The notes: generated by a model from the sequence alone, not told the origin. DNA of 64,000 bases from Chloroflexota bacterium (GCA_003169735.1 PNAP01000007.1:43738-107737); one strand, 5' to 3'. Positions 11,710 through 52,549 are shown, counted from the first letter of the stretch. A program made the numbers and translations.

Positions 11710-11777
11710 CGGGACCTCGGGTGCGGCGTGGCCCACGAGGCTACAGCAGGATCGCATGAACGGTCAGCAGGTGAGGT

Positions 11778-12872
11778 TCAGCCGCCGGTCGCTCCGCAGT
11801 ACCCAGGGTTGTTGCCCAGGTCGGTCCCGAGGACCACGTCGGTGACCTGGCCGACGTGCACCGCCTTGCCGTCCTGGTGCGACGCCGATGGCCAGTACCA
11901 GAACATGTCGATCACGATGCGGTAGAAGACGTGCGCGGTCGCGTGGGTGAGCGAATAGGTCCGACCGGACCACTGCGCGTTGTAGCTGCCGGTCGCCGAG
12001 GCCTTGACGACCGAGCTCGTCGAGAGGTCGTGCCAATCCGCGCTGGAGTTGAAGCTCACATCGTTGTATTGGATGCGGTATCGCCAGCCAACGGTCTGTC
12101 GTCCCGAGGTACCGACGCGGTCGCTCGCGTAGACGATGGGCGCACGGATGGTCATCGTCTTGAGCGCAAGATGGCCGGTCGAGCTGTAGACGCAGCGCGT
12201 CTCCGGGTACTCCTGATCGTCGATCAGATCATGCGCGCCGTAGTGATCGCTGTGGCCTGGAGGGTCGCCGACCAGGCCGTCAGGGATCGAGACGCTTCGG
12301 ACGCCGCCAGCGCGTTCGCCTTCGGAGCTCTCGCAGTCGTTCGGGGTGATCGAATGCCCGCCGGCGTCGCCGGTCGCCGCGAGCTGGTGGTCGTAGTACG
12401 CCCCGATCTGGACCGCGGTGCCGACGGGTGTGGTTCCGTCCGGGCCGTACCAGTAGTCGGTGACGACCACGCGATAGGTCAATTCCGTCGGCACGATCGC
12501 GTGGCTCCAGCGCGGGAACATCGCGTTGTGGTTGGGCGTGGCGGTCGCCTTCCGCAGCGGGCTCGCGTCCAGCAGGGTGTAGGTATCGTCGCTCGCCGTG
12601 CTGACCTTCGACTCTATGGTCGTCACCTCGCCGACGCGCTGCGAGGCCACACCGCTCGTAGCGAAGATGATCGGTCGCCGGACGGTGATCTTGTCGATGA
12701 GATCCGTGCCCGTCTCGCTGGCGCAGATCGCGCCGGGATACTCGGGGTTGTCCAGCAGGATGTGTACGCCGTACGTGCCCGTCTCACTCGGAGTGCCGGC
12801 CACGACCGGCGCGACGCTGAGCGCGATCGATACGACCACGACCGCCAGGCCTGAAACGAGCGCACGCGACAT
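11778..12872 (-). CDS. secreted protein, paralog B of the upstream gene (same two-domain architecture)
   Basis: Signal peptide 'LAVVVVSIALSVAPVVAG'. About 60% identity to paralog A, including the conserved tail 'SHQDGKAVHVGQ...D...G...CG.TGG'. DNA-level similarity is visible at the 3' ends. Confidence 0.6.
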   Translation of the reverse strand: MSRALVSGLAVVVVSIALSVAPVVAGTPSETGTYGVHILLDNPEYPGAICASETGTDLIDKITVRRPIIFATSGVASQRVGEVTTIESKVSTASDDTYTLLDASPLRKATATPNHNAMFPRWSHAIVPTELTYRVVVTDYWYGPDGTTPVGTAVQIGAYYDHQLAATGDAGGHSITPNDCESSEGERAGGVRSVSIPDGLVGDPPGHSDHYGAHDLIDDQEYPETRCVYSSTGHLALKTMTIRAPIVYASDRVGTSGRQTVGWRYRIQYNDVSFNSSADWHDLSTSSVVKASATGSYNAQWSGRTYSLTHATAHVFYRIVIDMFWYWPSASHQDGKAVHVGQVTDVVLGTDLGNNPGYCGATGG

Positions 12873-16046: not shown

Positions 16047-18362
16047 TCGGTCGGGATGACGGTCACGACACGTCCGATCCGGTCCGAGCCGACGGTCTCA
16101 CCCGCAGCTCCATCAGGGCTCGTGGCGCCAGTGTCGGGCGAGATCGGCGTCGGGCGAGCCGACGCCGACGCCACGCCGCGTCGGCGTGAAGGCCCGGAGA
16201 AACTGACCGGCGCCGCGAAATACGCTGATGACCTCGTCGTCCCGGGTGCCTGGTACGGCGCGACCATCCGCTCCACCGAGGCCCATGCCCGCCTGCTCGG
16301 CATCGACCTCGATCCGGACTTCGACTGGTCGAAGGTGGTCGTCGTGACCGCCGCCGACATCCCCGGCGAGAACGTGGTCAGTCTCATCTCGGACGATCAG
16401 CCGGCGCTCGTCTCGACCGAGATCCGCCACCACGCCGAACCGGTCGCGCTCATCGCCGCGCCCGATCGCGCCACGTTGCGCGGGGCCCGACGACGCATCC
16501 GCCTCCGCACGGAGCCGCTGCCGGCGGTCTTCGATCCGCTCGAATCGAGGCAGCAGTTCGCTCACTTCGAGCTTGCCGAGGGCGACATCGACGCCGGCTT
16601 CGCCGAGGCCGACCTGGTCATCGAGGGGACCTACCGTGTCGGCCACCAGGAACAGCTCTACATCGAGAACCAGGCCATGATCGCCATACCGCGCGACGAC
16701 GGCGGCGTCACGGTGCAGGGCTCGCTCCAGTGCCCGTACTACATCCACAAGGCACTCAAACGCGCTCTCGCGTTGTCCGGCGACCAGGCCGTGGTCGTCC
16801 AGACCGAGACCGGCGGCGGCTTCGGTGGCAAGGAGGAGTACCCCTCCATGATCGCCATCCACGCGGCGCTGTTGGCGCGGCGCTGCGGCAAACCGGTGCG
16901 CATGATCTACGAGCGCCACGAGGATCTGGCGGCGACCACCAAGCGGCACCCGGCCATCGTCCGGTACCGGAGCGGCGTCACGCATGACGGCCGGCTGGTC
17001 GCCCAGGACATCGAGGTCATCATGGACGGCGGCGCTTATTGCACGCTTACGCCGGTAGTCCTGTCGCGCGGCACCATCCACGCCGGCGGCCCCTATCGCT
17101 GCCCGAACGTGCGAATCCGTGGTCGGGCGATGGCCACCAACACGCCGCCGAACGGCGCCTTCCGCGGCTTCGGCGCGCCGCAGACCGAATTCGCGGCCGA
17201 GATGCAGGCCAATCGCGCGGCAGAAGCGCTGGGCATCTCACCGCTCGAGTTGCGGCGGCGTTGGGTCTATCGCGAGGGCGACACGACGCCGACCGGCCAG
17301 GTCCTGCGCGAGAGCGTCGGCGGCGAGGAGGTGCTCGAGCGGGCGGCCGAGGCGAGCGGCTTCGAGCGCGTCCGCGAGCTGACCCGCATCGGCCGGCATG
17401 CCCGGACGAGCCGCCAGCGCACGGCGTCTGGCATCGGCCTCGCGCTCGCCTGGCACGGCGCCGGGTTCACCGGCAGCGGCGAGGTCAAGCTGGCCAGCGT
17501 GGCCAGCATCGAGTTGACGCACGACGGCAGGATCCGCGTCCTGAGCGCCTCGACCGAGATGGGCCAGGGCACCAAGACGATCTTCCCGCAACTCGTCTCG
17601 CAGGAGCTTGGCGTGCCGTACGAGGCGGTCGAGATCGCGGTGCCGGACACCTCGGTCGTGCCGGACAGCGGCCCGACGGTCGCGTCGCGCACCGCGATGG
17701 TCGTCGGCGGGCTGCTCATCAAGGCCGCGCGTCGGCTGCGATCGCTGGTCGAGGACGCGACCGGGCGGACCTTCGCCGATTCGTACCGCGAGTACGCCGC
17801 GAGCCACGGCGGCGCGCGCGTCGACCAGCGCTTCGAGCCGTATCCGGATGTCTCGTTCGACGACGACACCTACCGCGGCGATGCGTATCCGTGCTACGGC
17901 TGGGCGGCCGCCGTGGCCGAGGTCGACGTCGATCTCGATACGGGCGAGGTCGCGGTGCGCCACGTGGTCGCCGTAGATGACGTTGGCAAGGTCATCCACC
18001 GCGTGCTGGCCGAGGGGCAGGTCGAGGGCGGCACGCTCCAGGCCGTTGGTTACGCGACGATCGAGGAGATCAAACTCCAGGACGGCCGCTACCTGAACGA
18101 CCGCCTCGCGACCTACCTGATCCCGACCGCGATGGACGCTCCCCACATCAGCACCATCCTCGTCGAGAAGCCGTTCAGCGGTTCGCCGCACGGGGCGAAG
18201 GGCGTCGGCGAGCTGCCCATGGACGTCGGGGCGCCGGCTGTGGTCGCCGCCATCCACGACGCGGTCGGCGTCTGGATCCACGATCTGCCCGCCTCGCCGG
18301 AGCGGATCCTTGCGGCGCTCGCCGCAAAGGGCGACGCCCGCGCGGGCACGCGTCCCGCATGA
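16047..18362 (+). CDS. xanthine dehydrogenase-family molybdopterin-binding large subunit
   Basis: Aldehyde-oxidase/xanthine-dehydrogenase a/b hammerhead and MoCo-binding domains ('GGGFGGKE', 'QVEGG'). ATG at 16047 is in the frame of track ORF 15861..18362. 4-bp overlap with the 2Fe-2S subunit gene. Confidence 0.85.
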   Translation, partial: SVGMTVTTRPIRSEPTVSPAAPSGLVAPVSGEIGVGRADADATPRRREGPEKLTGAAKYADDLVVPGAWYGATIRSTEAHARLLGIDLDPDFDWSKVVVVTAADIPGENVVSLISDDQPALVSTEIRHHAEPVALIAAPDRATLRGARRRIRLRTEPLPAVFDPLESRQQFAHFELAEGDIDAGFAEADLVIEGTYRVGHQEQLYIENQAMIAIPRDDGGVTVQGSLQCPYYIHKALKRALALSGDQAVVVQTETGGGFGGKEEYPSMIAIHAALLARRCGKPVRMIYERHEDLAATTKRHPAIVRYRSGVTHDGRLVAQDIEVIMDGGAYCTLTPVVLSRGTIHAGGPYRCPNVRIRGRAMATNTPPNGAFRGFGAPQTEFAAEMQANRAAEALGISPLELRRRWVYREGDTTPTGQVLRESVGGEEVLERAAEASGFERVRELTRIGRHARTSRQRTASGIGLALAWHGAGFTGSGEVKLASVASIELTHDGRIRVLSASTEMGQGTKTIFPQLVSQELGVPYEAVEIAVPDTSVVPDSGPTVASRTAMVVGGLLIKAARRLRSLVEDATGRTFADSYREYAASHGGARVDQRFEPYPDVSFDDDTYRGDAYPCYGWAAAVAEVDVDLDTGEVAVRHVVAVDDVGKVIHRVLAEGQVEGGTLQAVGYATIEEIKLQDGRYLNDRLATYLIPTAMDAPHISTILVEKPFSGSPHGAKGVGELPMDVGAPAVVAAIHDAVGVWIHDLPASPERILAALAAKGDARAGTRPA

Positions 18363-18826
18363 CCTACCACCTGACGGTCAACGGCGAGCCGGTCGAGCTG
18401 GCCGTACCCGGCATGCGTCGATTGCTCGATGCGCTGCGCGAGGACCTCGGGCTGACGGGCACAAAGGAGGGCTGCGGCGAGGGCGAGTGCGGCGCGTGCT
18501 CAGTGCTCGTGGACGGCGCCGTCGTCGACAGCTGCCTCGTCCCGGTCTGCCAGGTCGATGGGTCGACGGTTCGGACGGTCGAAAGCCTGGTAGGGCCCGC
18601 AGACGGTCGACTGAGCCCGCTCCAGGAGGCCTTCCTCGACGCCGGCGGCGCCCAGTGCGGCATCTGCACGCCGGGCATGCTGATGGCGGCGCGTGCATTC
18701 CTCGATGGCGGCGGCGAACCGACCGACGAAGCCATCCGCGAGGCCATCGCCGGCAACCTCTGCCGCTGCACGGGCTACACCAAGATCATCGAAGCCATCG
18801 CCCTCGCGGCGAAGCGTGAGCGTTGA
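18359..18826 (+). CDS. xanthine dehydrogenase (2Fe-2S)-binding small subunit
   Basis: 'CGEGECGACSV' plus 'CGICTPG...CRCTGY' are both [2Fe-2S] motifs of CoxS/XdhC-iron-sulfur subunits. Confidence 0.9.
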   Translation: MTYHLTVNGEPVELAVPGMRRLLDALREDLGLTGTKEGCGEGECGACSVLVDGAVVDSCLVPVCQVDGSTVRTVESLVGPADGRLSPLQEAFLDAGGAQCGICTPGMLMAARAFLDGGGEPTDEAIREAIAGNLCRCTGYTKIIEAIALAAKRER

Positions 18827-18884
18827 CAGCATACTGGACGCAGCATACCATTGTGGTACGTATCAACTGGTAGGGCACGCCGAT

Positions 18885-19124
18885 ATGAAAGCTACCGTCG
18901 GAGAGCGAGGTCAGGTGACCATCCCCAAGCCGCTGCGTGACCGTTTGGGCATCAGGCCGGGCGAACGACTCGAATTCACCGAGGAACCCGGCCGACTGGT
19001 GGTGCGAAAGGCCGACATCGAAGCACGGATGCGCAGCGTCTTCGGTACGCTCAAGCTGCCCGGCACGGTCGACGAGGCGATCGAAGAGATGCGTGGTCCA
19101 GTCGTATTGCCGCCGGAACCGTGA
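18885..19124 (+). CDS. vapB: AbrB/MazE/SpoVT-family antitoxin (VapB-like)
   Basis: 'GERGQVTIPKPLRDRLGIRPGERLEF' is a swapped-hairpin AbrB-type fold. 79 aa. Stop overlaps the PIN gene start (GTGA). Confidence 0.75.
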   Translation: MKATVGERGQVTIPKPLRDRLGIRPGERLEFTEEPGRLVVRKADIEARMRSVFGTLKLPGTVDEAIEEMRGPVVLPPEP

Positions 19125-19531
19125 TCACCGCGGTCGATACGAACGTGATCCTGGATGCTTTGACCGGCGAAGCTCCGTTCGCTGGGCCGTCACAGGAGGC
19201 GATGCTGACCTGTGCGGCCGACGGCTCGCTGATCGTCTGTGACGTCGTCTGGGCCGAGACGGTCGCATGGTTCCGGTCAGCGGACAGCATGGAAGCAACG
19301 ATGCAACGACTGGATCTGCGGTTCGTAGCGTCCTCGACTGCCACGGCTGAAGCCGCCGGACTGGCCTGGCGCCTGTACCGATCCGAGGGTGGACCGCGGG
19401 AACGGGTCCTACCCGACTTCCTGGTCGGAGCTCACGCCATGATCCAGGCGGATCGCCTCTTGACCCGCGATCGCGGATTCTTCCGGCGCTATTTTGACAG
19501 CCTCCGGATCGTCGATCTGGCGACCCCGTAG
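19121..19531 (+). CDS. vapC: PIN-domain ribonuclease toxin (VapC-like)
   Basis: 'ITAVDTNVILDAL' N-terminal acidic PIN motif, ~136 aa, GTG start. 4-bp overlap with the antitoxin gene. Confidence 0.75.
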   Translation: MITAVDTNVILDALTGEAPFAGPSQEAMLTCAADGSLIVCDVVWAETVAWFRSADSMEATMQRLDLRFVASSTATAEAAGLAWRLYRSEGGPRERVLPDFLVGAHAMIQADRLLTRDRGFFRRYFDSLRIVDLATP

Positions 19532-19540
19532 GCACCACTG

Positions 19541-20398
19541 ATGCCGGTCGAGCCACCCGTCGTGACGCCGCGGACTCTCGCGGATGCGTACGCGACCCTG
19601 GCCGGCGCGCCGCATCGGCCGATGGCCGGAGGCACGGATCTGATGGTGCAGATCACCGGCGAGATCGGCGAACCGCCAGAGCGCGTTCTGGACCTGTGGC
19701 GCCTGGATGAACTGCGCGGCATCGCTCTGTCCGCGACTGGCGACGAACTCGTCTTCGGCGCGCTGACGACGTACACGGAGATACGTCGCTCGGCGGTCGT
19801 CGCAGCGCGGCTACCGGCCCTGGTCGAGGCGGCCGCGACCATCGGCGCGGCGCAGATCCAGAACCGCGGCACGCTGGGCGGCAACATCGGCAATGCTTCA
19901 CCCGCTGGCGACACGCTGCCCATCCTGCTCGCGACCGACGCGGTCATCGTGCTCGGCAGCACGCGCGGCGAGCGCGGCGTCCCGGCAGCAGCGTTCTGGA
20001 CCGGGTACCGGAAGACGGCGCGAGCCGATGACGAGCTGGTCATCCGCGTCCGCATCCCGGTCCCGGCGCGGCGGGTGGTGCGCTTCCGAAAGGTAGGCAC
20101 GCGGCGAGCGCAGGCCATCTCCAAGGTCGTGTTGGCACTCGCCTATCGCGAAGACGGCGGCGTCTGGCGCGATGTCCGCGTCGCCCTGGGATCGGTCGCG
20201 GAACGCCCCATCCGGGTCCCGGAGACCGAGGCGGTCCTCGAAGGCGCCGCGGCCCGCGAGACGGTCGCCGATCACGCCGCGGCCGTCATCAGCCGCGAGA
20301 TCCACCCCATCGATGACGTCCGCTCCACCGCCGATTACCGCCGCATCGTCACCGCCAGGATCCTGCATCGCCTCCTGCGCGAGGAGGGCGGCTGGTGA
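19541..20398 (+). CDS. xanthine dehydrogenase FAD-binding subunit
   Basis: 'AGGTDLMV' and '[15 protein letters not shown]' are FAD-binding CoxM-type motifs. The gene starts 9 bp after the vapC stop and overlaps malate synthase by 4 bp. Confidence 0.85.
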
Positions 20399-21984
20399 CG
20401 TCGATCCCGGCCGGCGTCGAAGTCGGCGCCAGCGTGCCTACGGACCTCGAGAGCATCCTGTCGGCCGACGCGCTCGCCTTCGTCGCCGACCTCAATCGAA
20501 CGTTCGACCACCAGCGCATCGAGCTGCTGGAACGCCGCAGGGATCGCCAGGCCGAACTGGACGCCGGCGGCAAGCTCGATTTCCCGTTGGCCACCTGGGA
20601 GGTCCGGGAAGCCGCCTGGTCGGTCGCCCCCGCACCCTCCGATCTCGTCGACCGTCGCGTCGAGATCACCGGCCCGGTCGAGCGGAAGATGATGATCAAT
20701 GCGCTCAACAGCGGCGCTCGCGTCTTCATGGCGGATCTCGAGGACGCCCTCAGCCCGACCTGGTCGAACGTGCTCGAAGGCCAGGCCAACCTCCGCGACG
20801 CCGTCCGGCGAGAGCTCGACTTCACGAGCCCGGAGGGCAAGTTCTACGCGCTGGATGCCGAGACCGCCACGCTCGTGGTCCGGCCGCGCGGCTGGCATCT
20901 CGTCGAGCGGCACCTCCTCGTGGAGGGGCATCCAGTGTCCGCCTCGCTGTTCGACGCCGGCCTCTACCTCTTCCACAACGCGCGACAGATCCTGGAGCGC
21001 GACGAGGGCCCGTGCCGCGGCTCCTACTTCTACCTGCCCAAGCTGGAGAGCCGCTGGGAAGCGCGGCTCTGGAACGACGTCTTCATCCATACCCAGGAGC
21101 GACTCGGCATCCCGCGCGGGTCGATCCGCGCCACGGTCCTCATCGAGACCATCCCCGCCGCGTTCGAGATGGACGAGATCCTGCACGAGTTGCGCGAGCA
21201 CGCCGCGGGCCTGAACGCCGGTCGCTGGGACTACACCTTCAGCCTCATCAAGCGGTTCCAGGGCCGAGCGGACATGGTCCTGCCCGATCGCGCCCAGGTG
21301 ACCATGGCGGTGCCCTTCATGCGTGCCTACACGCAGCTCCTGGTCAAGACCTGCCATCGACGCGGCGCCCACGCCATCGGCGGCATGAGTGCCTTCATCC
21401 CCAACCGACGGAAGCCCGAGGTGACGGAGAACGCCCTGGCCAAGGTCCGAGAGGACAAGGAGCGCGAGGCGGGCGACGGATTCGATGGGACCTGGGTGGC
21501 CCACCCGGACCTGGTGCCGGTTGCGAAGGAGGTCTTCGACCGAGTCCTTGGCGACCGACCGAACCAGAAGGATCGACTGCGCCAGGACGTCCGAACGACG
21601 GCGGCCGAGCTCCTTGCGGTGGGCGTCCCGGGCGGGCGCGTGACCGAGGCCGGCGTGCGCACCAACATCTCGGTGGCGCTCCAGTACATCGATTCGTGGC
21701 TCGGCGGGAACGGCGCGGCCGCCATCAACGACCTGATGGAGGATGCCGCGACTGCGGAGATCAGCCGCACACAGCTGTGGCAATGGTTGCGCCACAAGGT
21801 CGCGCTGGACGACGGCGGGCGCATGACCGAGGAGTTGTACCGGGCGATCCGGGACGACGAGCTGGAGACGCTCGGCGCCGGGAACGGACATCTGGCCGCG
21901 GCCGCCGAGGTGCTCGATTCACTCGTCCTCGACGCGGAGTTCCATGAGTTCCTGACCTTGCTGGCGTACGGCCGCCTCGACTGA
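20395..21984 (+). CDS. aceB: malate synthase A
   Basis: 529 aa with malate synthase A signature regions ('[22 protein letters not shown]', 'GLNAGRWDY', 'HAIGGM'). Confidence 0.9.
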
Positions 21985-21995
21985 TCCGGGCGATC

Positions 21996-22421
21996 CTAGC
22001 GAGGATCAGCGAACGGGTTCTTGACCGTGACTGAACCGTACGTTGCGCCGTCCGCGAGGTCTTCGCTGAGGACGTGGGAACAACCCGCGACTTCGGCGGC
22101 GCGAAGGATCAAGGCATCCCAGATCGAGATCTGCCAATCTCGACTGCCGGCGATCGCCGCGGCGACGAGCGAGGCGTCGATGGCGACGACGGGCAGGACC
22201 GAGAGCTGACGAACCATCGCCTCGGCAACGTCGAGCGCCACGGGAACGGTGAGCTTCCGGGTGACCACCGCGTAGAACTCCGTCAGGACCTGTGTCGATA
22301 CGACCAGGTTGCGGCCGGGCAGTGGGGCGACGACCTCTTGGGCTCGGTCACGTTTCGTCTGGTCGGCGGTGTCGACCGCGTATACCCACACGTTCGTGTC
22401 AACGAAGATCAGATCGGTCAT
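21996..22421 (-). CDS. PIN-domain toxin (VapC-like), second TA module
   Basis: 'LIFVDTNVWVYAV' PIN N-terminal motif. Start taken at the internal ATG, overlapping the antitoxin gene. Confidence 0.7.
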   Translation of the reverse strand: MTDLIFVDTNVWVYAVDTADQTKRDRAQEVVAPLPGRNLVVSTQVLTEFYAVVTRKLTVPVALDVAEAMVRQLSVLPVVAIDASLVAAAIAGSRDWQISIWDALILRAAEVAGCSHVLSEDLADGATYGSVTVKNPFADPR

Positions 22422-22644
22422 GCAGTTCGTCTCGCGTCCACGCGCGGCCGCCGGGTCCACTGGTCGCCAGGCTCCGCGCGGCCAGATCCGCGAACGCCAT
22501 CAGGGCCACAGCCGAGTCAGTCACGCCCGCGTAGCGTTCGAGGTACGTTCGAAGCAGAGCGTTGACCGAGGTTCCGTCCTCCAGAGCGCGCATTCGGGCT
22601 TTCTTCAAGAGTCGGTCGTCGAGGGCGATCGTCAGATTGGCCAT
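22399..22644 (-). CDS. ribbon-helix-helix (CopG/Arc-like) antitoxin
   Basis: 'MANLTIALDDRLLKKARMRALEDGTSVNALLRTYLE' is a classic RHH N-terminus. 81 aa. Sits upstream of and overlapping the PIN gene. Confidence 0.65.
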   Translation of the reverse strand: MANLTIALDDRLLKKARMRALEDGTSVNALLRTYLERYAGVTDSAVALMAFADLAARSLATSGPGGRAWTRDELHDRSDLR

Positions 22645-22726
22645 GTCAGAGCTCCCGTGCTACACGGGTTCAGTGTAACACGGGTATCTAATCGCGCCTA
22701 CTCGAGCCGTTTGCGGTGCGAGTCGC

Positions 22727-24118
22727 CTAGCGGCTGACGATGGATCGCTCCTGATAGCGGCCGAAACCGCGGCGCCCGACGAACTCCCCGCTGCGGATCA
22801 CATCCTGGCCGCGCAGCAGGACGTGGCGCACGGCGCCGCGCACGGCCATACCCTCATATGGCGTGTAGTCGCTGGTGTGATGGAGGTCGGCGGCGCGGAT
22901 GATGCGCGCGGCCGAGGGATCGAAAAGAACCAGATCGGCGTCCTTGCCGACCTCGATGACGCCCTTCGACGGCATACCGAAGAGTCGGGCCGGCGTCGTC
23001 GAGAGGACATCGACCATGCGCTCGAGCGTGATGCGGCCCTTGGCGACGCCCTCCGAGTAGACGATCGCGAGGAGCGTCTCGATGCCCGGTGCCCCGTTGC
23101 TGATCTCGGTGAACGGCTGGCCCGTGTAGCGCTTCTCAACGGCCAGCCGGTCCGGCACGTGGTCCGTGGCGACCACATCAAGCGTGCCATCGGCGAGGCC
23201 GGTCCAGAGTGCATCGACGTCGTGGCGCGAGCGGAGCGGCGGCGAGATGACGTAGCGCATCGCCTCATCATCCGTGCCTTCGTAAACGCGCGAATCCAGC
23301 GCCAGGAAGTGCGGGCACGTCTCGGCGAAGACCGCTTCGCCGCGCACTTTCGCGGCGCGGATCGTCGCGACGGCATCGCCGCACGACACGTGGACCGCAT
23401 ACATCGGCGCGCGGGCCCTGGCCGCCAGCGCGATCGCCCGCTCGGTTCCGGATGCCTCGACCTCTGGCGGCCGCGAATCGGCGTGGTGGCGCGGCGCCGT
23501 GCGACGCGCCGCCATCTGGGCGGCGATGCCCCGCTCGAGCATCGCCCGGTCCTCGCAATGGATCTCGAGCAGGGCGCCCAGGCTCGCCGTCCCGGCCAGG
23601 AGTCGGCCCAACGCCGCCTCATCGACCCCGAAGTCAAAGACCATGAACGCCTTGAAGGTCGAGACTCCTTGCTCGACCGCCCAGGCCAGATCGGCCTCGG
23701 GCGACGCCTGCTGCGCCGTGATCACGGCCGACAGCCCGTAATCGATCGCCGAATCGCCGACGGTCCGATCCAGCCACTCGGCCACGCCGTCGCGCAGCCG
23801 CCCTTGGGCCGCGACGGAGATGCCCGTCCCTGGGTTGTTGAACGAGAGGAACGTGGTCGTGCCGCCGTACGCGGCCGCCACGGAGTCCTGGAAGAACCGA
23901 TCGGGCTCCGCGTCGCTGGCGATCCGCGTGTGCGTGTGGACGTCGATGACGCCTGGCAGAACGAGAAGACCCGTGGCGTCGACGACTCGACCGGCCGACT
24001 CGACCGGGATGGCGGCCTCGACCGCGGCGATGCGCGAACCCTGGACGGCCACGTCGGCTTGACGGGATCCGCTCGGCGTGACCACCGTGCCGCCACGGAT
24101 CAGCACATCGAAGCTCAT
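22727..24118 (-). CDS. cyclic amidohydrolase (allantoinase / dihydropyrimidinase / hydantoinase family)
   Basis: 'DVHTHT' metal-binding motif and a dihydroorotase-like TIM-barrel layout. Start at ATG ~24118 ('MSFDVLIRGG'). The context of urate-pathway genes favours allantoinase. Confidence 0.8.
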   Translation of the reverse strand: MSFDVLIRGGTVVTPSGSRQADVAVQGSRIAAVEAAIPVESAGRVVDATGLLVLPGVIDVHTHTRIASDAEPDRFFQDSVAAAYGGTTTFLSFNNPGTGISVAAQGRLRDGVAEWLDRTVGDSAIDYGLSAVITAQQASPEADLAWAVEQGVSTFKAFMVFDFGVDEAALGRLLAGTASLGALLEIHCEDRAMLERGIAAQMAARRTAPRHHADSRPPEVEASGTERAIALAARARAPMYAVHVSCGDAVATIRAAKVRGEAVFAETCPHFLALDSRVYEGTDDEAMRYVISPPLRSRHDVDALWTGLADGTLDVVATDHVPDRLAVEKRYTGQPFTEISNGAPGIETLLAIVYSEGVAKGRITLERMVDVLSTTPARLFGMPSKGVIEVGKDADLVLFDPSAARIIRAADLHHTSDYTPYEGMAVRGAVRHVLLRGQDVIRSGEFVGRRGFGRYQERSIVSR

Positions 24119-24131
24119 CGCGAGCCCCGGT

Positions 24132-24542
24132 TCATCGCTCCTCGATGGTGATGTGCTGCGCACCCTCCCAGAGGGCGCGGCGGCCCATCTCGCGGAGCTG
24201 CTCGCCCCCCTCGAAGATGGTCGCGAAGTGGTTGCCGGCGAGCTGACCGACCTTGGACGAGAAATCGACGGCGCCATACGCGACCAGGATCTCCGCCTCG
24301 GAGATGCCGCCGGGATAGACGATCAGCTCGCCCGGTGCCGGGTGGCTGGTGGGATTCTCGAAGCCGACCCCGAAATCCATGTCGCCGAAGGGGATCCAGC
24401 ATCCCTCGCCGCTCCACCGGCAGTGGATGAGCTTGGCGCGCAACGGCAGCATCTCGCGGACCCGGGCACTCGTGTGGGGCGCTTCGGCCACCCAGCGAGC
24501 GGTAAAGTGGAGGTCGCCGACGGTGATCGCGAGGTCGCCCAT
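24132..24542 (-). CDS. DUF3830-like small protein
   Basis: 'MGDLAITVGDLHFTARW...' is 136 aa from an internal ATG. The long N-terminal extension of the track ORF is low-complexity and is rejected. Confidence 0.5.
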   Translation of the reverse strand: MGDLAITVGDLHFTARWVAEAPHTSARVREMLPLRAKLIHCRWSGEGCWIPFGDMDFGVGFENPTSHPAPGELIVYPGGISEAEILVAYGAVDFSSKVGQLAGNHFATIFEGGEQLREMGRRALWEGAQHITIEER

Positions 24543-24582
24543 GGCCGCAGGATAGCGGCTGGCCAACGGTGTCAGGAGATGG

Positions 24583-24918
24583 ATGAACGACGGACGGCCG
24601 ACCATCTCGACCCACGTGCTCGACACGGCGACGGGTGCACCAGCGGTCGGCATCCCCGTGCGATTGGTGCGCGTGGTCGACGATGGCGCCGAGGTCGATG
24701 CCGGCGCGGGGGTGACCGATGCGGATGGGCGGATCCGCCAGCTCCTGCGCGGCGAGCTGACGGCCGGGGCATATCGGTTGCACTTCGACCTGACCGAGGC
24801 CGGCGGCGGGTTCTTCACTGGCCTGGCGCTCGACCTGCTGGTCCGGGACGCCGACCGCAGCTACCACGTGCCTCTGCTCATCGCGCCGTTCGGATTGACG
24901 ACCTACCGCGGCAGCTGA
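24583..24918 (+). CDS. uraH: 5-hydroxyisourate hydrolase (transthyretin-like)
   Basis: Transthyretin-like fold with 'STHVLDT' and the C-terminal 'YRGS' signature. 111 aa. Confidence 0.9.
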   Translation: MNDGRPTISTHVLDTATGAPAVGIPVRLVRVVDDGAEVDAGAGVTDADGRIRQLLRGELTAGAYRLHFDLTEAGGGFFTGLALDLLVRDADRSYHVPLLIAPFGLTTYRGS

Positions 24919-25388
24919 TGAACGCCGCGGAGTCAGTGGTCGAGGCGATCTTCGAGGGAGCGCCGTGGTTCGTGGCGCGACTGATGGCGGACGGCCCATT
25001 CGAGTCCGACGCGGCGCTGCTCTGGCACGCCGGGGAACTGGCGCGGGCGATGCCCGAGGCTGACCAGGTCGCGCTGCTCGCGGCCCATCCGCGGATCGGT
25101 GCGCCGCCCGCGTCCGTGTCCGCTATGTCGTTCCACGAGCAGGGCTACGACCGACCCATCGACTCGGGCGCCCTGCCGGCGCAGCTCGATCGCCTCAACG
25201 ATGCCTACGAATCGCGCTTCGGCTTCCGGTTCGTCATCTTCGTCAACGGTCGGTCGCGCGCCGAAATCGCGCGCGTCATGGAGCGGGCACTGACGAGCGA
25301 CCGCGCGACCGAGAAGCAGCGCGGGCTGACCGACGTGGTTGCCATCGCCGCGGATCGGCTGCGCACCATCCGGGAGGGTGGCCAGTGA
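24918..25388 (+). CDS. uraD: OHCU (2-oxo-4-hydroxy-4-carboxy-5-ureidoimidazoline) decarboxylase
   Basis: C-terminal 157 aa of track ORF 24078..25388 ('AHPRIGAP...FRFVIFVNGRS'). Its ATG overlaps the uraH stop (TGATG). Confidence 0.8.
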   Translation: MNAAESVVEAIFEGAPWFVARLMADGPFESDAALLWHAGELARAMPEADQVALLAAHPRIGAPPASVSAMSFHEQGYDRPIDSGALPAQLDRLNDAYESRFGFRFVIFVNGRSRAEIARVMERALTSDRATEKQRGLTDVVAIAADRLRTIREGGQ

Positions 25389-26311
25389 AGACCGAGATCC
25401 ACTACGGCAAGGCCGCCGTCTCGACCTATCGCACGTACGCCACGCCGCTGCGCGTGACGCCCATCCCGGAATCGCCGTTCACGGGCCGCGAGAACATCAT
25501 CATGGGTGCCGCGATCGACGTCCGCGTGCTCGGCGAATCGTTCCTCGCCGCCTACACCGGAGGCGATAACCGCCTCGTCGTCGCCACCGACACGATGAAG
25601 AACTTCATCCATCGTGAATCGCTGGCCTTCGACGGGCCGACTTTGGAGGGCTGGCTCTTCTTCATCGGGCGTCGTTTCCTCGAGACCTACCCGCACATGG
25701 AGCGCCTGGAGATGAGCGGGCGCGAGGCGCCGTTCCTCGCCGCGCGCGTGCCGGACGGCGACTCCGGCGGCTGGCGCGACAGCGCCGTCCTGTTCGACCG
25801 TGGGCATGGCGACCACGGCACGGCAGTGGTCGCGCTCGACCGGACCGGCGACGGCGCGATCGTTGCGACCGAGGTCCATTCGGGACGGGCCGACCTGGAG
25901 ATGATCAAAGTCTCTGGCAGCAGCTTCGCGCAGTTCGCGCGCGACGCGTATACGACGCTGCCGGAGCGAACCGATCGGCCGCTCTACGTCCACCTGGATA
26001 TCGGCTGGCGCTACGCCGACCCGATGATCGCGATCACGCCGGATGCCGCGCGCTACGTCGCGTCGGAGCAGGTCGCGGATCTCGCGGCGACCGTCTTCGA
26101 CGGCTTCGTCAGCCTCTCCATCCAGCACCTCGTCCATGAGATCGGCCAGCGCGCGCTGGCTCGATGGCCGCAACTCACCGAGATCTCGTTCGAGGCGCAG
26201 AACCGGCTCTGGGATCTGTCGCACACGTCCGATTCGGACGAGCGGGTCAAGGTCTATACGGACCCGCGGCCGCCGTTCGGGCGTATCGGGCTGGTGCTGC
26301 GCCGCGACTGA
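25385..26311 (+). CDS. factor-independent urate oxidase (uricase)
   Basis: 'VVATDTMKNFIH' uricase signature region and tandem T-fold layout. 4-bp overlap with uraD. Confidence 0.85.
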   Translation: MKTEIHYGKAAVSTYRTYATPLRVTPIPESPFTGRENIIMGAAIDVRVLGESFLAAYTGGDNRLVVATDTMKNFIHRESLAFDGPTLEGWLFFIGRRFLETYPHMERLEMSGREAPFLAARVPDGDSGGWRDSAVLFDRGHGDHGTAVVALDRTGDGAIVATEVHSGRADLEMIKVSGSSFAQFARDAYTTLPERTDRPLYVHLDIGWRYADPMIAITPDAARYVASEQVADLAATVFDGFVSLSIQHLVHEIGQRALARWPQLTEISFEAQNRLWDLSHTSDSDERVKVYTDPRPPFGRIGLVLRRD

Positions 26312-35008: not shown

Positions 35009-35785
35009 TCACGCGTCGACCACCTCCATCCGGATGCGCTTGTTGATGCGGCCCTTGGATTCGTAGCCGGTGACGTGGATCCGCCCGACCTCGGAGGTAT
35101 TCGCAACGTGCGTGCCACCGTCGGCCTGAAGGTCGAGCCCCTCGATGTCGATGACGCGGATCTCCGAGATGCCCGGCGGCAGCAGGTTGATCTTGGTGCG
35201 GATGAGATCGGGGATGGCGAACGCCTCGTCGCGCGGCAGGACGCGGACGTGGATGGGATGCGCGGCGGCCAGCTCGGCGTTGACACGCGCCTCGATGCTG
35301 CTCACGAGATCGCCCGACATCGACTCGAACTCGAAATCCATCCGGCCACGACCCGGCTCCATGTTGCCGCCCGTGACGAGCGCGCCGTGGTCGCGCCAGA
35401 CGACGCCGCACAGGGCATGCAGCGCGGTATGGGTGCGCATCAACAGGTGACGGCGCGGCCAGTCGATCTCCGCCACGACCGCATCGCCGGCCTGGAGCGC
35501 GGCCGCCGACCCACGTTCCGCCACAGAGGCCGCGATTCGATGGACGATGGCCGGGCCGGCCTTCGCCGCCGATTCGACCGGCCACGAGGGGCTGCCATCG
35601 GCGTCCGCGCGCTGCAACCATCCGTTGTCGGCCGGCTGGCCGCCGCCACCGGGATAGAAGACGGTTCGGTCGAGGATCACCTCAAGGACGCCGTCGTCTG
35701 CCCGGTGCACCGCCTCGACCGTGGCTCGAGTGGAGCGCGCGTACGCGTCTCGATAGCAGATGGCGTCGGTGACCTGATCGCCCAT
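35009..35785 (-). CDS. alanyl-tRNA editing protein AlaX-M (Ser/Gly-tRNA(Ala) deacylase)
   Basis: 'HTALHAL' and 'GGTHV' zinc-binding motifs of the AlaRS editing domain. 258 aa. Confidence 0.8.
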   Translation of the reverse strand: MGDQVTDAICYRDAYARSTRATVEAVHRADDGVLEVILDRTVFYPGGGGQPADNGWLQRADADGSPSWPVESAAKAGPAIVHRIAASVAERGSAAALQAGDAVVAEIDWPRRHLLMRTHTALHALCGVVWRDHGALVTGGNMEPGRGRMDFEFESMSGDLVSSIEARVNAELAAAHPIHVRVLPRDEAFAIPDLIRTKINLLPPGISEIRVIDIEGLDLQADGGTHVANTSEVGRIHVTGYESKGRINKRIRMEVVDA

Positions 35786-42623: not shown

Positions 42624-43229
42624 CTACTCGGCGTTGATGCCGCCTTCGGGCGCGGGACTCGGCGCATTCGTCACGCCGCCCGCCGGTTGGCGGATGCTCG
42701 GTTCGACGGTCGACCGGATCGCGCCCACCGGGCGGAACGCGGGCTCCGCGGAGCGGGGCGCCTCGGCCATCGCCTGGGTGGCCTTCTGCATGTGCAGCTC
42801 GCCATCGACGTAGCCGCCTTCGTGCAGCATCAGCTTGACGGTCTCGATTGTGCCGCTGACCCGCCCGGTCGGCATGACCTCGAGGCGCTGCCGGCAGACG
42901 AGCTTGCCGGTGTACTGCCCGGCGATGATGACCTCCTCGGCGGTCACATCGGCTGAGACCTTGGCGCTCTGCTCGATGAGCACGTGGCTGGCCGATTCGA
43001 TCGAGCCGTCGACGCTGCCGAGGATGCGGACGCCGCGTGCCGTGCGGAGCTTGCCTTCGATGCGATCGTCCGCGGCGAGCACGCTCTCCTCACCGGATCG
43101 CGCGATGGACGCGGGGCCGCCCGCGCCCCCGGGAACGCTCGACGCCTCCCTGGTGCCGGCGGGTGACGTGATCGGACGGACCGCGCGCTGGTCCTCGTTG
43201 GCTGGTCGCTCGTTGTTTCGGCCGAACAT
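42624..43229 (-). CDS. bactofilin-family cytoskeletal protein
   Basis: Central beta-helical DUF583-like repeats ('ILGSVDGSIESASHVLIEQSAKVSADVTAEEVIIAGQYTGKL') with disordered termini. Confidence 0.75.
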   Translation of the reverse strand: MFGRNNERPANEDQRAVRPITSPAGTREASSVPGGAGGPASIARSGEESVLAADDRIEGKLRTARGVRILGSVDGSIESASHVLIEQSAKVSADVTAEEVIIAGQYTGKLVCRQRLEVMPTGRVSGTIETVKLMLHEGGYVDGELHMQKATQAMAEAPRSAEPAFRPVGAIRSTVEPSIRQPAGGVTNAPSPAPEGGINAE

Positions 43230-43272: not shown

Positions 43273-43348
43273 TCTAGGCGAATTGGTAGGGGAGCCTGGA
43301 TTCGAACCAGGAACCAGCCGGATATAAGCCGACCGCTCTAACCGTTGA
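43273..43348 (-). tRNA. tRNA-Ile, anticodon UAU (tRNA-Ile2-like)
   Basis: Reverse complement gives a 76-nt cloverleaf: GGGGGAG|TA|GCTC-AACGGTTA-GAGC|G|GTCGG-CTTATAT-CCGGC|TGGTT|CCTGG-TTCGAAT-CCAGG|CTCCCCT|A|CCA. The anticodon loop CU-UAU-AU places TAT at positions 34-36. Architecture resembles E. coli tRNA-Ile2. Confidence 0.8.
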
Positions 43349-43400
43349 GCTACTCCCCCGCCGAGATGCTACACCGGCCGTTGCCGACGAAGCTCGGCGG

Positions 43401-43790
43401 TCAGCTGATGAGCGGCCGGATGACCTGGAAGATGACCACCAGGACGAGATAGACGATGGGCAGCGAGGCGATCAGCCCGAGGAACCCCGACCACCACGAG
43501 CGGCGCCGCACGCCGGATGCCCCGGTCGGCAGCTCGACCCAGAGGTAGGTCACGACGCTGCCGACGACCATCACGACCAGCACGTAGAGAGCGCCGAGCG
43601 CGGTCCGGAGGTCACCGCCCGGCAGCGCCGTGCCATGCGAGAGCAACACGTCATAGGCGAGCAGCGCCAGGCCACCGACGACAGCTACGCTCAGGTTCGC
43701 GACCACCGCCCGGAAGATCGGCGGCGGCGGGTTGCGCGCCTGCCGCAGCCGGACCTTGAGCCAGGAACGCGGCCGTGGCTCGGTCACGCG
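43401..43790 (-). CDS. small membrane protein (3 TM), hypothetical
   Basis: GTG start overlaps the upstream stop (GTGA). Hydrophobic segments 'LSVAVVGGLALLAY', 'LGALYVLVVMVVGSVVTYLWV' and 'FLGLIASLPIVYLVLVVIF'. Confidence 0.4.
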   Translation of the reverse strand, partial: RVTEPRPRSWLKVRLRQARNPPPPIFRAVVANLSVAVVGGLALLAYDVLLSHGTALPGGDLRTALGALYVLVVMVVGSVVTYLWVELPTGASGVRRRSWWSGFLGLIASLPIVYLVLVVIFQVIRPLIS

Positions 43791-44686
43791 CGATCGTCCG
43801 ATGGAGTGAGGATGGCCAAACCCGGCCGGCGGGGCAGCGAATCGGGCGTGTGACCGGCGAGCACGGCGACCACCTCGGCGAACCGCGTGAGTTCGGCCTC
43901 GGTGTTCCAGAACCCTACGCTGGCTCGGACAGCATCCCGTTCGCCAGCCGATCCCAGGATGGCGAAGACCCTCCGCGACAGCTCCTCCCCGGTCTGTTCG
44001 GCCGTCCAACCGCCGATGGTGAAGGTGACCACCGCAGGCCCGGGTGAGGGCAGAAGGTCGACCCCGTGGACCGCCGCCAGCTCCTCCGAGAGGAGGGCGC
44101 TCAGTCGAGCCGTCCGTTCGTACGCCCACGGCAGCCCGACGAACATCTCGAGCCAGCCGAGGGAGCGGGCGAGACCTAGCAGCGACCGCCGAGGCAGGGT
44201 CGGCGAGTTCGGCCGCTTCGCGTGCCGGCCACGTGCGCCCGGCCGAAGCCACAGAGCGCCGGACCCCTCAGGTCCGAGCAGCCAGCGGTGGCCGTCGAGC
44301 ACCGCCGCATCCACGCTGAGTGCCGTGACGTCGATCGCCTCGACGCCCGCGACATAGCGCAGATCAGCGACCGCGGCACCATCGGGGAGCCAGCGGACCG
44401 CGTCATCCGCGCCGAACATGAGCACGATGTCGTCCGCATCCGCCCCGAGCAGCGCGGCGACGACCGCCCGCGCCTCGGCATCGCGTTGTGCCACGTCCGC
44501 GTCGCGATCCGGTCCGCCGCGGCCGACCTTGAGTTCCCATTCGTCGGCTTCGGCCAGGGCGCGGGCCGTCTCGGCCGGGAACGGGCCGGCCGTGGCCGTG
44601 TCGAGATAGATGCCAGCGCCAGTGGCCGGCAACATCTCGCGGATGTCGGCGACCTTCTCGTCGTCGGTGTGGAGCGGCTCGACCAT
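43784..44686 (-). CDS. aminotransferase class V-like protein (short, possibly degenerate)
   Basis: Recognisable class-V fold segments ('IYLDTATAGP', 'DIVLMFGA'), but only 300 aa and no clear PLP-lysine motif. Confidence 0.5.
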   Translation of the reverse strand: MVEPLHTDDEKVADIREMLPATGAGIYLDTATAGPFPAETARALAEADEWELKVGRGGPDRDADVAQRDAEARAVVAALLGADADDIVLMFGADDAVRWLPDGAAVADLRYVAGVEAIDVTALSVDAAVLDGHRWLLGPEGSGALWLRPGARGRHAKRPNSPTLPRRSLLGLARSLGWLEMFVGLPWAYERTARLSALLSEELAAVHGVDLLPSPGPAVVTFTIGGWTAEQTGEELSRRVFAILGSAGERDAVRASVGFWNTEAELTRFAEVVAVLAGHTPDSLPRRPGLAILTPSDDRA

Positions 44687-50152: not shown

Positions 50153-52549
50153 TCAATGCGTCGCGAATACCTGGGTGCCGACCAACAGGATCCCGAAGAC
50201 GATGAACACGACGACGATGATGGCGACGATCGTGAGCAGGATGTTCAGGGCACGCGACCGCGTTCCCTGGTCGCTGCTCGGCACGGAACGATCCGGCTCG
50301 CCGGTCAGCAGCCAGAGCGCGCCAGGGGCTGGCGAGTCGCCCGGTGCCGACGCCGCAGCGGCGGCACGTTGACGGAACTGGGCGCGCAACTGAGCCTCAG
50401 GGGTCATCGCTCCGGTCAACGCGGCCTGCGAGCTGGCGCCGACCGACTCGAGCGATCGGCCTGGCGCCGCGCTCGGTACCAGACTCTGCAGATCCCGCGG
50501 CGCGTTGCCGGTCTCGGAGCCACGTTCCGGCGAGAGAGCCCCCGGCCCCGATGTCTCGGTATCCGGAGCTGGGCTGAGCACCGAGAAGGTCCGCCCGCCC
50601 GACGGAGACTGTCGGTCCATGATCCCCTGCTGCGACCAGCGGGGCAGCGCGGCGTCGTGGCCGCCGTCCGGGAACGGCTCGCTCAACACCGCCAGTTGTG
50701 GCGTAGGCGGCCATGCCTCTTCAGCGAGCTTGCCATCGCTGGGTGATCCGTCGAGGAACGAGGATCCTACGGGCGCAGGATCCTCTGACACCGGAGCGAG
50801 TTGAGCGGGCGCGTCGGCTTCGGGCGGGGTCGCGGCAACCCACGGCGCAGGACCCGTCGTCGAGCTCATCGGTTCCGCCGCTGGCGCTTCCGCATGCACC
50901 GTATCGACGAATGGGTCGGCGACAAGGAGTGGTTCGGCGGCTGGCGCCGCCGCGAGCGGTGGCTCGGCGACGTGCGGCTCGGACGCCGGCGCCCGGTCGA
51001 ACAGGGACGAAAGGAACGCCCGGTCGGGAGTCGGGCCGAGCGGCATCCCCTGGGGCGGCACGGCGACATGCCCATGACTGGCTGCGGCAAGATCCGCGGC
51101 CTCGGGCGCCACGGTTTCCGGGTCTGCGCCGCTGTCCTCGGGTGCGGCTTCCGAGTCGGCCTCGGTGACCTCTGCCTCAGCCGCGGGCAGCCCAAGCGCC
51201 TCGAGCCGTTGGGCGATGCGTCGCTCGGAGGAATCGGTGGTTGGCGGTCGAAGCGAACGGAAGGCGAATCCCAGGTCGGTCGGATCCGCGGCATCGAAAT
51301 CGGTCAGCGCCGTGGCTCCATCCGGCATGGGCGCATCGGCACTCGTCCCGGGCTCGGTCATGGCAACCGAGACAGGAGTCTCAGCGGAGACGGGAGTCTC
51401 AGCCGACGCAGCAGCGTCGGCAGGGGCGGGCATCTCGGCCGGTTCGATCCACCAATGGTCATCAAGAGGGGTGGGTGGCGACACGGCGTCAAAACCGTCC
51501 TCCGTGTCGTGGCCGTCGTCGAGGTGCTCCACCGATGGAGCCTCTGTCGGCACATCCGGAGTTCCGTCCACCGGCCCGGCATCCGCCGCCGTGTCCTGAG
51601 ACATAGGCTCGGTGCTGGGCGGCTCGTCCGGCTCGGCGTCAGGCGCGGTCGTGGCCGCCGCCGCTGTCGTCGGAGGTGCCACGGCGGATCGCCATGCCGG
51701 GTGAACCGGTAGTGATGAGGGCGTCTCTGGGGCCGTCGGATGGGTCCAGTCGTCGGCGTCGAAGGTTCGATGGGCGTCGGCCGTCGTGTACGGCTGGACC
51801 TCGAACGGCTCGTGCGCATCTGGGCCAGTGTCGAGCAGCTCGACATCGACCGGCAGCGCGGCGTCCCTACCCGCCGCGTATCCCGCGACCGCATCGTGAG
51901 GCACCTCTACCTCATGCGGGACATCCACGTCTTCGGCCTCGGGCACCGCGATGGTTTCATGGTCGAACCCGGTCGATTCCATCGGCGCGGTCCAGGCTGA
52001 TGCCGATCCAGGCTCGGCGGCTGCCTGCGCGGGCATCGATGGCATTCGGGTCGGCGCTCCGAAGACAGACGCCGGATGCGGCGTGATCGCCGGCGTGGAG
52101 GCGCGCGGGATCCACGCCGAAGCCAGAGATCGCGCCAGCGACGGAGCGGTTGCCGGCGGTTGACCGACCGACGGATCGGTCGCGATCTGCGGACTCAAGA
52201 CTGCCGCGGCGATGACCGGGGCATCGGCATCGGGGTCCCAGGGTTCGGCAGCAGGATCGCCGGCCTCGGGCTCAGCCGGCGCCATCGGATGGTCCCAGGC
52301 ATCTTCGGGCGGCACGATCGGCGCCGATGCGGACGGTGCGAGCGGCTGGAGATAGGGCGGCGCCAGCGGCGCGAAGTCGCGCGGCGGCGCGAAGTCGGGC
52401 GGCGGGGCGAGATCGGGCGGCGGCCCGACCGAGAACCCGGCGTGTTCGGCGGCCGAGGCCACGTCAGGGAGTCGCCACGGATCGTCTCCGCGCGCCGTGT
52501 CGTCATCCGGTTCCGGTGTCGTCCAGGGCGTGCCGCTCATCTCATTCAT
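50153..52549 (-). CDS. large acidic Pro/Ala/Asp/Glu-rich disordered protein with a single C-terminal transmembrane anchor
   Basis: ~800-aa low-complexity ORF ending in the hydrophobic helix '[26 protein letters not shown]'. Start ATG overlaps the thiolase stop (ATGA at 52546-52549). Plus-strand alternatives are Arg-rich shadow ORFs. Confidence 0.55.

Follow-up and report, generated by a model that had tools for sequence, protein, structure and literature searches.

The 64,000-nt stretch of Chloroflexota DNA analysed here (the window; GCA_003169735.1, PNAP01000007.1:43738-107737) carries a single tRNA gene, reported by ARAGORN as a tRNA-Ile with anticodon tat at position 34. The gene and its neighbours are all on the minus strand:

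43284..43359, minus strand: tRNA-Ile(UAU) gene, 76 nt with the 3' CCA encoded (ARAGORN and Rfam)
43284-43286, minus strand: encoded CCA, preceded by A73 at 43287
43359 and 43288, minus strand: G1 and U72, which form a wobble pair
43324..43326, minus strand: anticodon U34-A35-U36 (the plus strand reads ATA), placed by the sequence, the Infernal alignment to the tRNA consensus and ARAGORN
43322-43328, minus strand: 7-nt anticodon loop CUUAUAU
43401..43787, minus strand: predicted multi-pass membrane protein of 128 aa, with 41 nt between its stop codon and the tRNA 5' end
43784..44686, minus strand: shortened class-V aminotransferase/cysteine-desulfurase-like protein of 300 aa (partial match to Pfam PF00266, E=5.7e-12)
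42624..43229, minus strand: bactofilin gene (Pfam PF04519, E=2e-23), which starts 54 nt past the tRNA 3' end

The tRNA sequence (GGGGGAGUAGCUCAACGGUUAGAGCGGUCGGCUUAUAUCCGGCUGGUUCCUGGUUCGAAUCCAGGCUCCCCUACCA) divides on the minus strand into GGGGGAG-UA-GCUC-AACGGUUA-GAGC-G-GUCGG-CUUAUAU-CCGGC-UGGUU, the last element being the variable loop, followed by CCUGG-UUCGAAU-CCAGG-CUCCCCU-A-CCA. Rfam model RF00005 matches it over model positions 1-71 of 71 with 67.3 bits (gathering score 29; E=1.7e-12), and the model flags no non-canonical pairs. The register of the anticodon is unambiguous: a 5-bp stem closes a 7-nt loop in which U33 precedes and A37 follows the anticodon. Position 38 is a U. All 76 nt are unchanged in four independent public assemblies of one population, from Stordalen Mire (GCA_003131865.1, GCA_003131785.1, ENA 'WOOD18-1' and a Logan run, with 99.9-100% DNA identity to the window), so T34 is not a sequencing or assembly error. 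Exact matches to the bactofilin and enoyl-CoA hydratase proteins of the window led to these assemblies. The first-pass annotation of this DNA had described a canonical cloverleaf with T-A-T at positions 34-36 and a G1-U72 wobble. The cloverleaf is borne out by ARAGORN, by the Rfam score and by compensatory changes in homologues (see below), the anticodon by ARAGORN, the Infernal alignment and the four identical assemblies, and the wobble by the positions of G1 and U72. It had also named two ways in which it could be wrong, a different anticodon-loop register and a pseudogene with a poor covariance score. ARAGORN and Rfam agree on tat, and the full-length score is far over the gathering score. 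The interval it had proposed, 43273..43348, includes 65 of the 76 nt and the whole anticodon but is shifted by 11 nt, and no strand was named.

Homologues were sought in one genome per species with a pattern made of the D-arm, an anticodon loop flanked by the G30-G31/C39-C40 pairs, and the T-loop. This narrow pattern also fixes U38 and T34, and so it undercounts carriers. It matched 107 loci in species-level genomes. Ninety-four of them, hereafter the core loci, have the acceptor stem GGGGGAG/CUCCCCU and are all found in Chloroflexota MAGs, representing approximately 93 species-representative assemblies. Going by record titles and not by phylogeny, 23 of the core loci belong to Ca. Limnocylindria, Limnocylindrales or Limnocylindrus, and the others are labelled Chloroflexota, Chloroflexi or Chloroflexia bacterium, or Anaerolineaceae. 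A large group of uncultured Chloroflexota, Ca. Limnocylindria among them, has thus conserved a tRNA-Ile(UAU). Carriers include the complete MAG chromosomes OY969885.1, OY970149.1 and OY970185.1. One MAG, DATKBB01 (Ca. Limnocylindria SMAG_U14409), has a copy of the gene on each of two contigs (L157 and L200), which could be a gene duplication or strain mixing in the bin.

The other 13 loci have different acceptor stems and come mostly from Patescibacteria (Saccharibacteria, Berkelbacteria, Spechtbacteria), together with one Dehalococcoidia MAG and two MAGs labelled Gammaproteobacteria; there are no actinobacteria among the 107 loci. The anticodon arm GG-CUUAUAU-CC is present in nine CPR loci (L130, L132, L155, L161, L171, L181, L198, L214, L215) whose acceptor stems are different. 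L164 (Dehalococcoidia) and L176 likewise share this arm with the Chloroflexota clade and differ in the acceptor stem. G1·U72 is found also in two of the other-stem loci, L171 and L176. At L198 (Saccharimonadales) two CAU tRNAs lie a few kb from the UAU tRNA. A lysidine-free reader of AUA may therefore be scattered through the CPR too.

The core loci hold 36 distinct tRNA sequences of the GGGGGAG/CUCCCCU acceptor class, whose alignment was used to analyse covariation. Standard pairs occupy 99.5% of the stem cells, both partners change in 7 of the 21 pairs, and all four stems keep their pairing. None of 500 shuffles reached the observed pairing and covariation values, and the signal collapses when the partners are slid by 1-3 columns. 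The pair 28-42 occurs as C-G, U-A, A-U and G-C, the pair 29-41 as C-G in 28 sequences and G-C in six, and the pair 51-63 as A-U or U-A; these covarying stem positions were free in the search pattern. Tertiary contacts covary too. For the Levitt pair 15-48, 23 sequences have A·U and the other 13 have G·C, with no exception, and the pair 26-44 alternates between G·U and A·C; without folding of the RNA into the L-shape this behaviour would be difficult to account for. G1·U72 is invariant in the 36 sequences, and all 93 complete core copies have the CCA in the gene itself. The conservation of the loops and of the 30-31/39-40 pairs is in part ascertainment, because the search pattern fixed those positions, and since the pattern required T34, its occurrence in all 94 core loci adds no independent support.

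These data bear on the possibility that the locus is a pseudogene, or that it resembles a tRNA but serves the operon in some way other than decoding, for instance as a regulatory or processing signal. The position of the tRNA between protein genes of the same strand, with no match for a promoter or terminator of its own, would fit such a role, and the minimum-free-energy fold of the single window sequence is not significantly better than that of shuffles (z = -1.8). The latter is usual for tRNAs. The high covariance score, the compensatory changes in secondary and tertiary pairs, the encoded CCA and canonical anticodon loop, and the presence in conserved genes of AUA codons that need a reader (see below) make this explanation very improbable. 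The comparison of sequences shows instead that the gene is under purifying selection and vertically inherited. We estimate at about 90% the probability that it is a functional, vertically inherited tRNA-Ile(UAU) gene of this uncultured Chloroflexota lineage.

Vertical inheritance is also shown by the gene neighbourhood. The 128-aa membrane protein, which has no Pfam or NCBIfam match, is matched by a homologue at an equal distance from the tRNA in 74 of the 94 core loci, and public assemblies also call a 128-aa gene. A homologue of the desulfurase-like gene is found at the window's offset in 62 of these loci, and one of the DNA ligase gene in 37. The 5' side of the tRNA is thus conserved and its 3' side varies across the clade, where bactofilin adjoins the tRNA in only 16 of the 94 core loci. 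The protein identities of the syntenic neighbours between the window and the clade are only 45-67%, which shows that the arrangement outlived a long divergence. No promoter-like or terminator-like site was found flanking the tRNA on its strand. Together with the short gaps of 41 nt and 54 nt on its two sides, this makes co-transcription followed by processing likely: the tRNA is probably transcribed in a same-strand array with the desulfurase-like gene, the membrane-protein gene and bactofilin.

The desulfurase-like protein scores far below the cut-offs of the NCBIfam cysteine-desulfurase families. Its PLP-binding lysine is replaced by arginine (GHRW) in the window and in most homologues, a minority of which keep the lysine (QKW, DKW), and it is probably a catalytically inactive derivative. 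A link between this neighbour and thiolation of U34 was considered and set aside for the same reasons, namely that the protein is shortened, falls below the family cut-offs and mostly has Arg in place of the PLP Lys. Clustering of the neighbours within ±2.5 kb of the tRNA at the 94 loci revealed no synthetase or tRNA-modification genes.

Acquisition from a phage or genomic island, or a role of the tRNA as an integration site, would place the gene outside the core translation apparatus. UAU tRNA-Ile genes are indeed very common on viral contigs, where a generic UAU pattern found at least 120 loci. Among the listed IMG/VR viral loci L001-L120, ARAGORN assigns 116 of 408 tRNAs to tRNA-Ile(tat), and U38 is present in 39 of these 116. 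A targeted scan found four viral contigs that share the anticodon arm of the clade; however, none of the four has a GGGGGAG-type acceptor stem. The viral genes thus resemble the Chloroflexota one in their anticodon and in the frequent U38 among the matches listed, but their acceptor stems differ and their setting is a viral contig, often with several tRNA genes in an array, whereas the gene studied here is chromosomal and syntenic across species. The composition around it is native and without anomaly in a window of 66-73% GC, there are no integrase, phage or mobile-element genes nearby, and the 3' end of the tRNA is not repeated elsewhere in the window as an att site would be. Since the 5' neighbourhood is kept in up to 74 of the 94 species-level genomes, import by a phage, like decay to a pseudogene, is very unlikely.

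Several other regions of the window were noted. A purine-catabolism neighbourhood at 16122-26311 encodes xanthine-dehydrogenase-type molybdoenzyme subunits (MoCoBD, 2Fe-2S and FAD), malate synthase, amidohydrolases, OHCU decarboxylase and uricase. Other genes code for a large LuxR/AAA regulator, an ATP-dependent DNA ligase and beta-oxidation proteins. Such a gene content, bactofilin included, and the high GC at first pointed to an actinobacterium; this origin was rejected, as the close tRNA matches and the loci with syntenic flanks are all from Chloroflexota MAGs and the window matches the Stordalen Mire assemblies. Pfam does not match the 798-aa ORF at 50153-52549 (minus strand), whose coding signal is weak, with a GC3 of 0.76 compared to approximately 0.87 elsewhere; the public assemblies also call a gene of 798 aa, again without Pfam matches. 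Two adjacent minus-strand ORFs of 391 and 364 aa (10582-11757 and 11778-12872) have no Pfam match and a low first-position GC (0.60), and they may be paralogues of an uncharacterised family. The segment 36413-40607, next to an M20 peptidase gene, encodes a DNA methylase and the large LuxR/AAA regulator in the window and in two ENA assemblies. Polyketide-type genes replace it in L265 (GCA_003131865.1), where the ligase gene is split, a difference due to strain-level variation or mis-assembly. Of the other genes in the window, only that for a free-standing AlaX-type alanyl-tRNA editing protein (35009-35785, minus strand; NCBIfam AlaXM, E=3e-73) serves translation fidelity.

The origin of the tRNA body was approached with a metagenome scan for a C34 version having the same 5' acceptor strand, which found 30 CAU tRNAs, nine of them with U72. 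Four of the U72 tRNAs (L249, L256, L261, L262) lie on metagenomic contigs of 57-66% GC and have the GGGGGAG acceptor strand, G1·U72, the AAUGGUUA D-loop and the UGGUU variable loop; they are identical to the window tRNA at 61 of 76 positions. No synteny or shared genes were found between the high-GC CAU contigs and the window or the clade loci. These four tRNAs are candidate Ile2-type relatives from high-GC organisms. The best match of the window tRNA on the E. coli chromosome is an accessory CAU tRNA annotated as tRNA-Ile (51-55 of 76 positions identical), and the L249-type analogue matches only tRNA-Ile among the annotated E. coli tRNAs. Another CAU analogue matches E. coli tRNA-Lys at 80-81%, and the remaining BLAST matches among annotated E. 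coli tRNAs were to tRNA-Asn on plasmids and to a truncated 'tRNA-Met'. Position 38 is U in the window tRNA and A in the CAU analogues. Like the canonical tRNA-Ile2(CAU), the window tRNA would have AUA as its only task, and it has an 8-nt D-loop with GG, a 5-nt variable loop (UGGUU/UGGUC) and A73; unlike it, the window and the four assemblies have T34 where the canonical tRNA has the C34 that receives lysidine. The earlier description of the body as tRNA-Ile2-like is therefore weakly favoured by the E. coli CAU tRNA-Ile match and by the CAU analogues, one of which is nevertheless equally tRNA-Lys-like. The gene may plausibly have arisen from one of Ile2 type through a C34-to-U change, and the candidate origins comprise Ile2 with C34U, Ile1 with G34U and Lys with U35A.

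The identity elements of E. coli IleRS, reportedly described by Nureki et al. in 1994, are A73, U12-A23, C29-G41, A37 (as t6A), A38 and C4-G69. The window tRNA has A73, U12-A23, C29-G41 and A37, and departs from this set by G4-C69 in place of C4-G69 and by U38 in place of A38. Such a mismatch is not surprising for a distant IleRS.

The first-pass annotation had expected AUA to be very rare in this high-GC genome, and so it is. Among the 18,375 codons of the window genes that were called by third-position GC, 7 are AUA and 762 are AUC. Codon-level alignments of the neighbouring genes of the window with their clade homologues (114,792 aligned codons) contain 78 AUA, or 0.68 per 1000, and the overall frequency is 0.4–0.7 per 1000. 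We analysed 55 alignment columns that together hold 69 AUA codons, with at least 8 sequences each. At these columns, Ile represents 33% of the residues of the other species (background 4%), Ile, Val, Leu and Met together 81% (background 25%), Met 2.5%, and Lys 4 of approximately 2,000 residues. Because relatives have Ile, Val and Leu at the AUA columns, AUA means isoleucine. By this indirect evidence it is a true, if rare, codon for isoleucine, and the lineage must have a tRNA to read it.

The same columns argue against a tRNA of another identity that would reassign AUA, be it a former tRNA-Lys(UUU) with U35A still charged with lysine or a methionine acceptor as in mitochondria. The tRNA-Lys-like CAU analogue and the lack of the E. 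coli elements C4-G69 and A38 would agree with such an origin. However, the columns are dominated by Ile, Val and Leu, with the marginal Lys and Met contents given above; moreover, LysRS depends strongly on U35 and MetRS on C34. We regard reassignment as very unlikely.

The view that a dedicated AUA decoder would be notable in a GC-rich genome does not stand. Burkholderia cenocepacia, with 67% GC and 0.6 AUA per 1000 codons, retains TilS and tRNA-Ile2 (PMC12514573), and a dedicated decoder at such base composition is consequently ordinary.

Reading of AUA by the tRNA-Ile(UAU) could proceed as follows. The tRNA would be cut from the co-transcript by RNase P and 3' processing, with no need of CCA addition since the CCA is encoded. 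IleRS would charge this minor tRNA through A35, U36, A37 and A73, and the charged tRNA would read AUA by direct pairing of U34 with A. As U34 pairs directly with the A of AUA, the tRNA itself would need no lysidine at C34, and as position 34 is T and not C, TilS has no substrate in it. Misreading of AUG may be limited by an unmodified or restrictively modified U34, and by competition from tRNA-Met together with the very low AUA usage, as in Mycoplasma mobile; with AUA so rare, some misreading would cost little. A restrictive modification is known in eukaryote-type tRNA-Ile(UAU), which has pseudouridine at 34 and 36 formed in an intron-dependent manner. The Chloroflexota gene has no intron beside the anticodon, being continuous over its 76 nt with a 7-nt loop.

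The closest functional precedent is M. mobile, in which tilS is absent and an unmodified UAU tRNA-Ile decodes AUA (Taniguchi et al. 2013, PMC3575796). In the model proposed there, IleRS has adapted to U34, the ribosome rejects pairing of the tRNA with AUG, and tRNA-Met competes (PMC3575796). Both tRNAs are bacterial, genomically encoded UAU isoleucine tRNAs that read, or here would read, AUA without lysidine. The M. mobile genome, however, is tiny, AT-rich and parasitic, whereas the host here is a free-living Chloroflexota of roughly 69% GC; the loss of tilS and the unmodified U34 are demonstrated in M. mobile. G1·U72 and U38 are lineage features of the Chloroflexota tRNA relative to that of M. 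mobile. In Bacillus subtilis, a single anticodon mutation of tRNA-Ile1 (GAU to UAU) makes TilS dispensable (PMC3919564; PMC3575796). That suppressor is a laboratory derivative of tRNA-Ile1, whereas the Chloroflexota gene is natural and long-fixed.

The first-pass annotation had also stated that a genomically encoded UAU tRNA-Ile has been reported in only a few lineages. Published lists are indeed short: nine species in three clades without tilS carry the tRNA and a few species carry it together with tilS (2013, PMC3575796), 17 genomes of Bifidobacterium, Mycoplasma and Neorickettsia are listed with it (2021, PMC8450103), and a 2021 survey that included Chloroflexi described UAU as lost in prokaryotes (PMC8007984). 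The 107 species-level genomes and the at least 120 viral loci reported here do not agree with so restricted a distribution. In Bifidobacterium and Neorickettsia, as in the Chloroflexota, the UAU tRNA-Ile is kept clade-wide and not sporadically, and Bifidobacterium is fairly GC-rich too. Loss of tilS and a eukaryote-type IleRS are documented for those two groups (PMC3575796, PMC8450103), and the Chloroflexota clade is much larger, with approximately 93 species-level genomes detected by one narrow pattern.

Whether the UAU tRNA replaces or supplements the lysidine pathway depends on tilS. Systems of the M. mobile or Bifidobacterium type are marked by the lack of both tilS and a CAU tRNA-Ile2 and by an IleRS adapted to U34, either of eukaryote type or with Arg or Lys at the position of E. 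coli W905. The window, a 64-kb part of the genome, has no tilS, ileS, mnmA, mnmE or mnmG, and no ileS lies in any clade locus retrieved. A PP-loop motif scan for TilS in approximately 1.9 Mb of clade loci found only PAPS-reductase-like and GuaA-like proteins. The lineage may keep TilS and a CAU tRNA-Ile2 and use the UAU tRNA as a second reader of AUA, possibly minor or conditional. This alternative is compatible with a functional tRNA and competes only with the TilS-independent role of the UAU tRNA as sole AUA decoder. Some bacteria do have both tilS and a gene for a TAT tRNA-Ile (PMC3575796), and such a second reader has been proposed for Lactobacillus casei and L. plantarum, Cyanothece and Ferrimonas; tilS is reported in approximately 98% of annotated bacterial genomes (PMC12514573); and the high-GC metagenomic CAU tRNAs L249, L256 and L262 have the same acceptor 5' strand and G1·U72. 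On the other side, published clade-wide retention of a UAU tRNA-Ile is found only where tilS is absent (Bifidobacterium, Neorickettsia, some mycoplasmas), and published carriers of both systems are sporadic. By analogy with these cases, the syntenic site and clear purifying selection across approximately 93 species-level genomes would speak against a redundant tRNA. We give a redundant decoder a chance that falls only slightly short of even. By analogy with the published clades, the possibility that the UAU tRNA is the sole AUA decoder and independent of TilS may likewise be put at nearly one in two. The broader proposal, that a class-level, free-living and high-GC lineage has dispensed with TilS, lysidine and the CAU tRNA-Ile2, with G1·U72 and U38 serving as identity or fidelity features, is more tentative, and we would bet modestly against it.

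A genomically encoded UAU tRNA-Ile, at times termed Ile3, is already known as a kind of gene, and the Chloroflexota are a new and unusually large lineage of carriers. No report of tRNA-Ile(UAU) in Chloroflexota or Patescibacteria was found within the literature searched. The clade-wide UAU solution is the moderately interesting part of these observations, the presence of a dedicated AUA decoder at high GC being ordinary.

Telling AUA from AUG is the classic difficulty of the genetic code. In bacteria, the making of lysidine by TilS is regarded as an essential and nearly universal function, and the enzyme is a discussed antibacterial target and is used as a universal marker. Exceptions have been documented in only a handful of genomes, which are reduced or host-associated. 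If tilS is present in the Chloroflexota lineage, the finding shrinks to a conserved redundant isoacceptor. If AUA is read there without TilS, the lineage would be the fourth independent one to do so; it would greatly exceed the other three in size and would be the first whose genomes are neither reduced nor host-associated. A GC-rich clade of this size, free-living and with strong selection for a UAU tRNA-Ile, would widen the known natural solutions to AUA decoding, and its approximately 36 natural variants could show which features, such as G1·U72 and U38, accompany lysidine-free reading of this codon.
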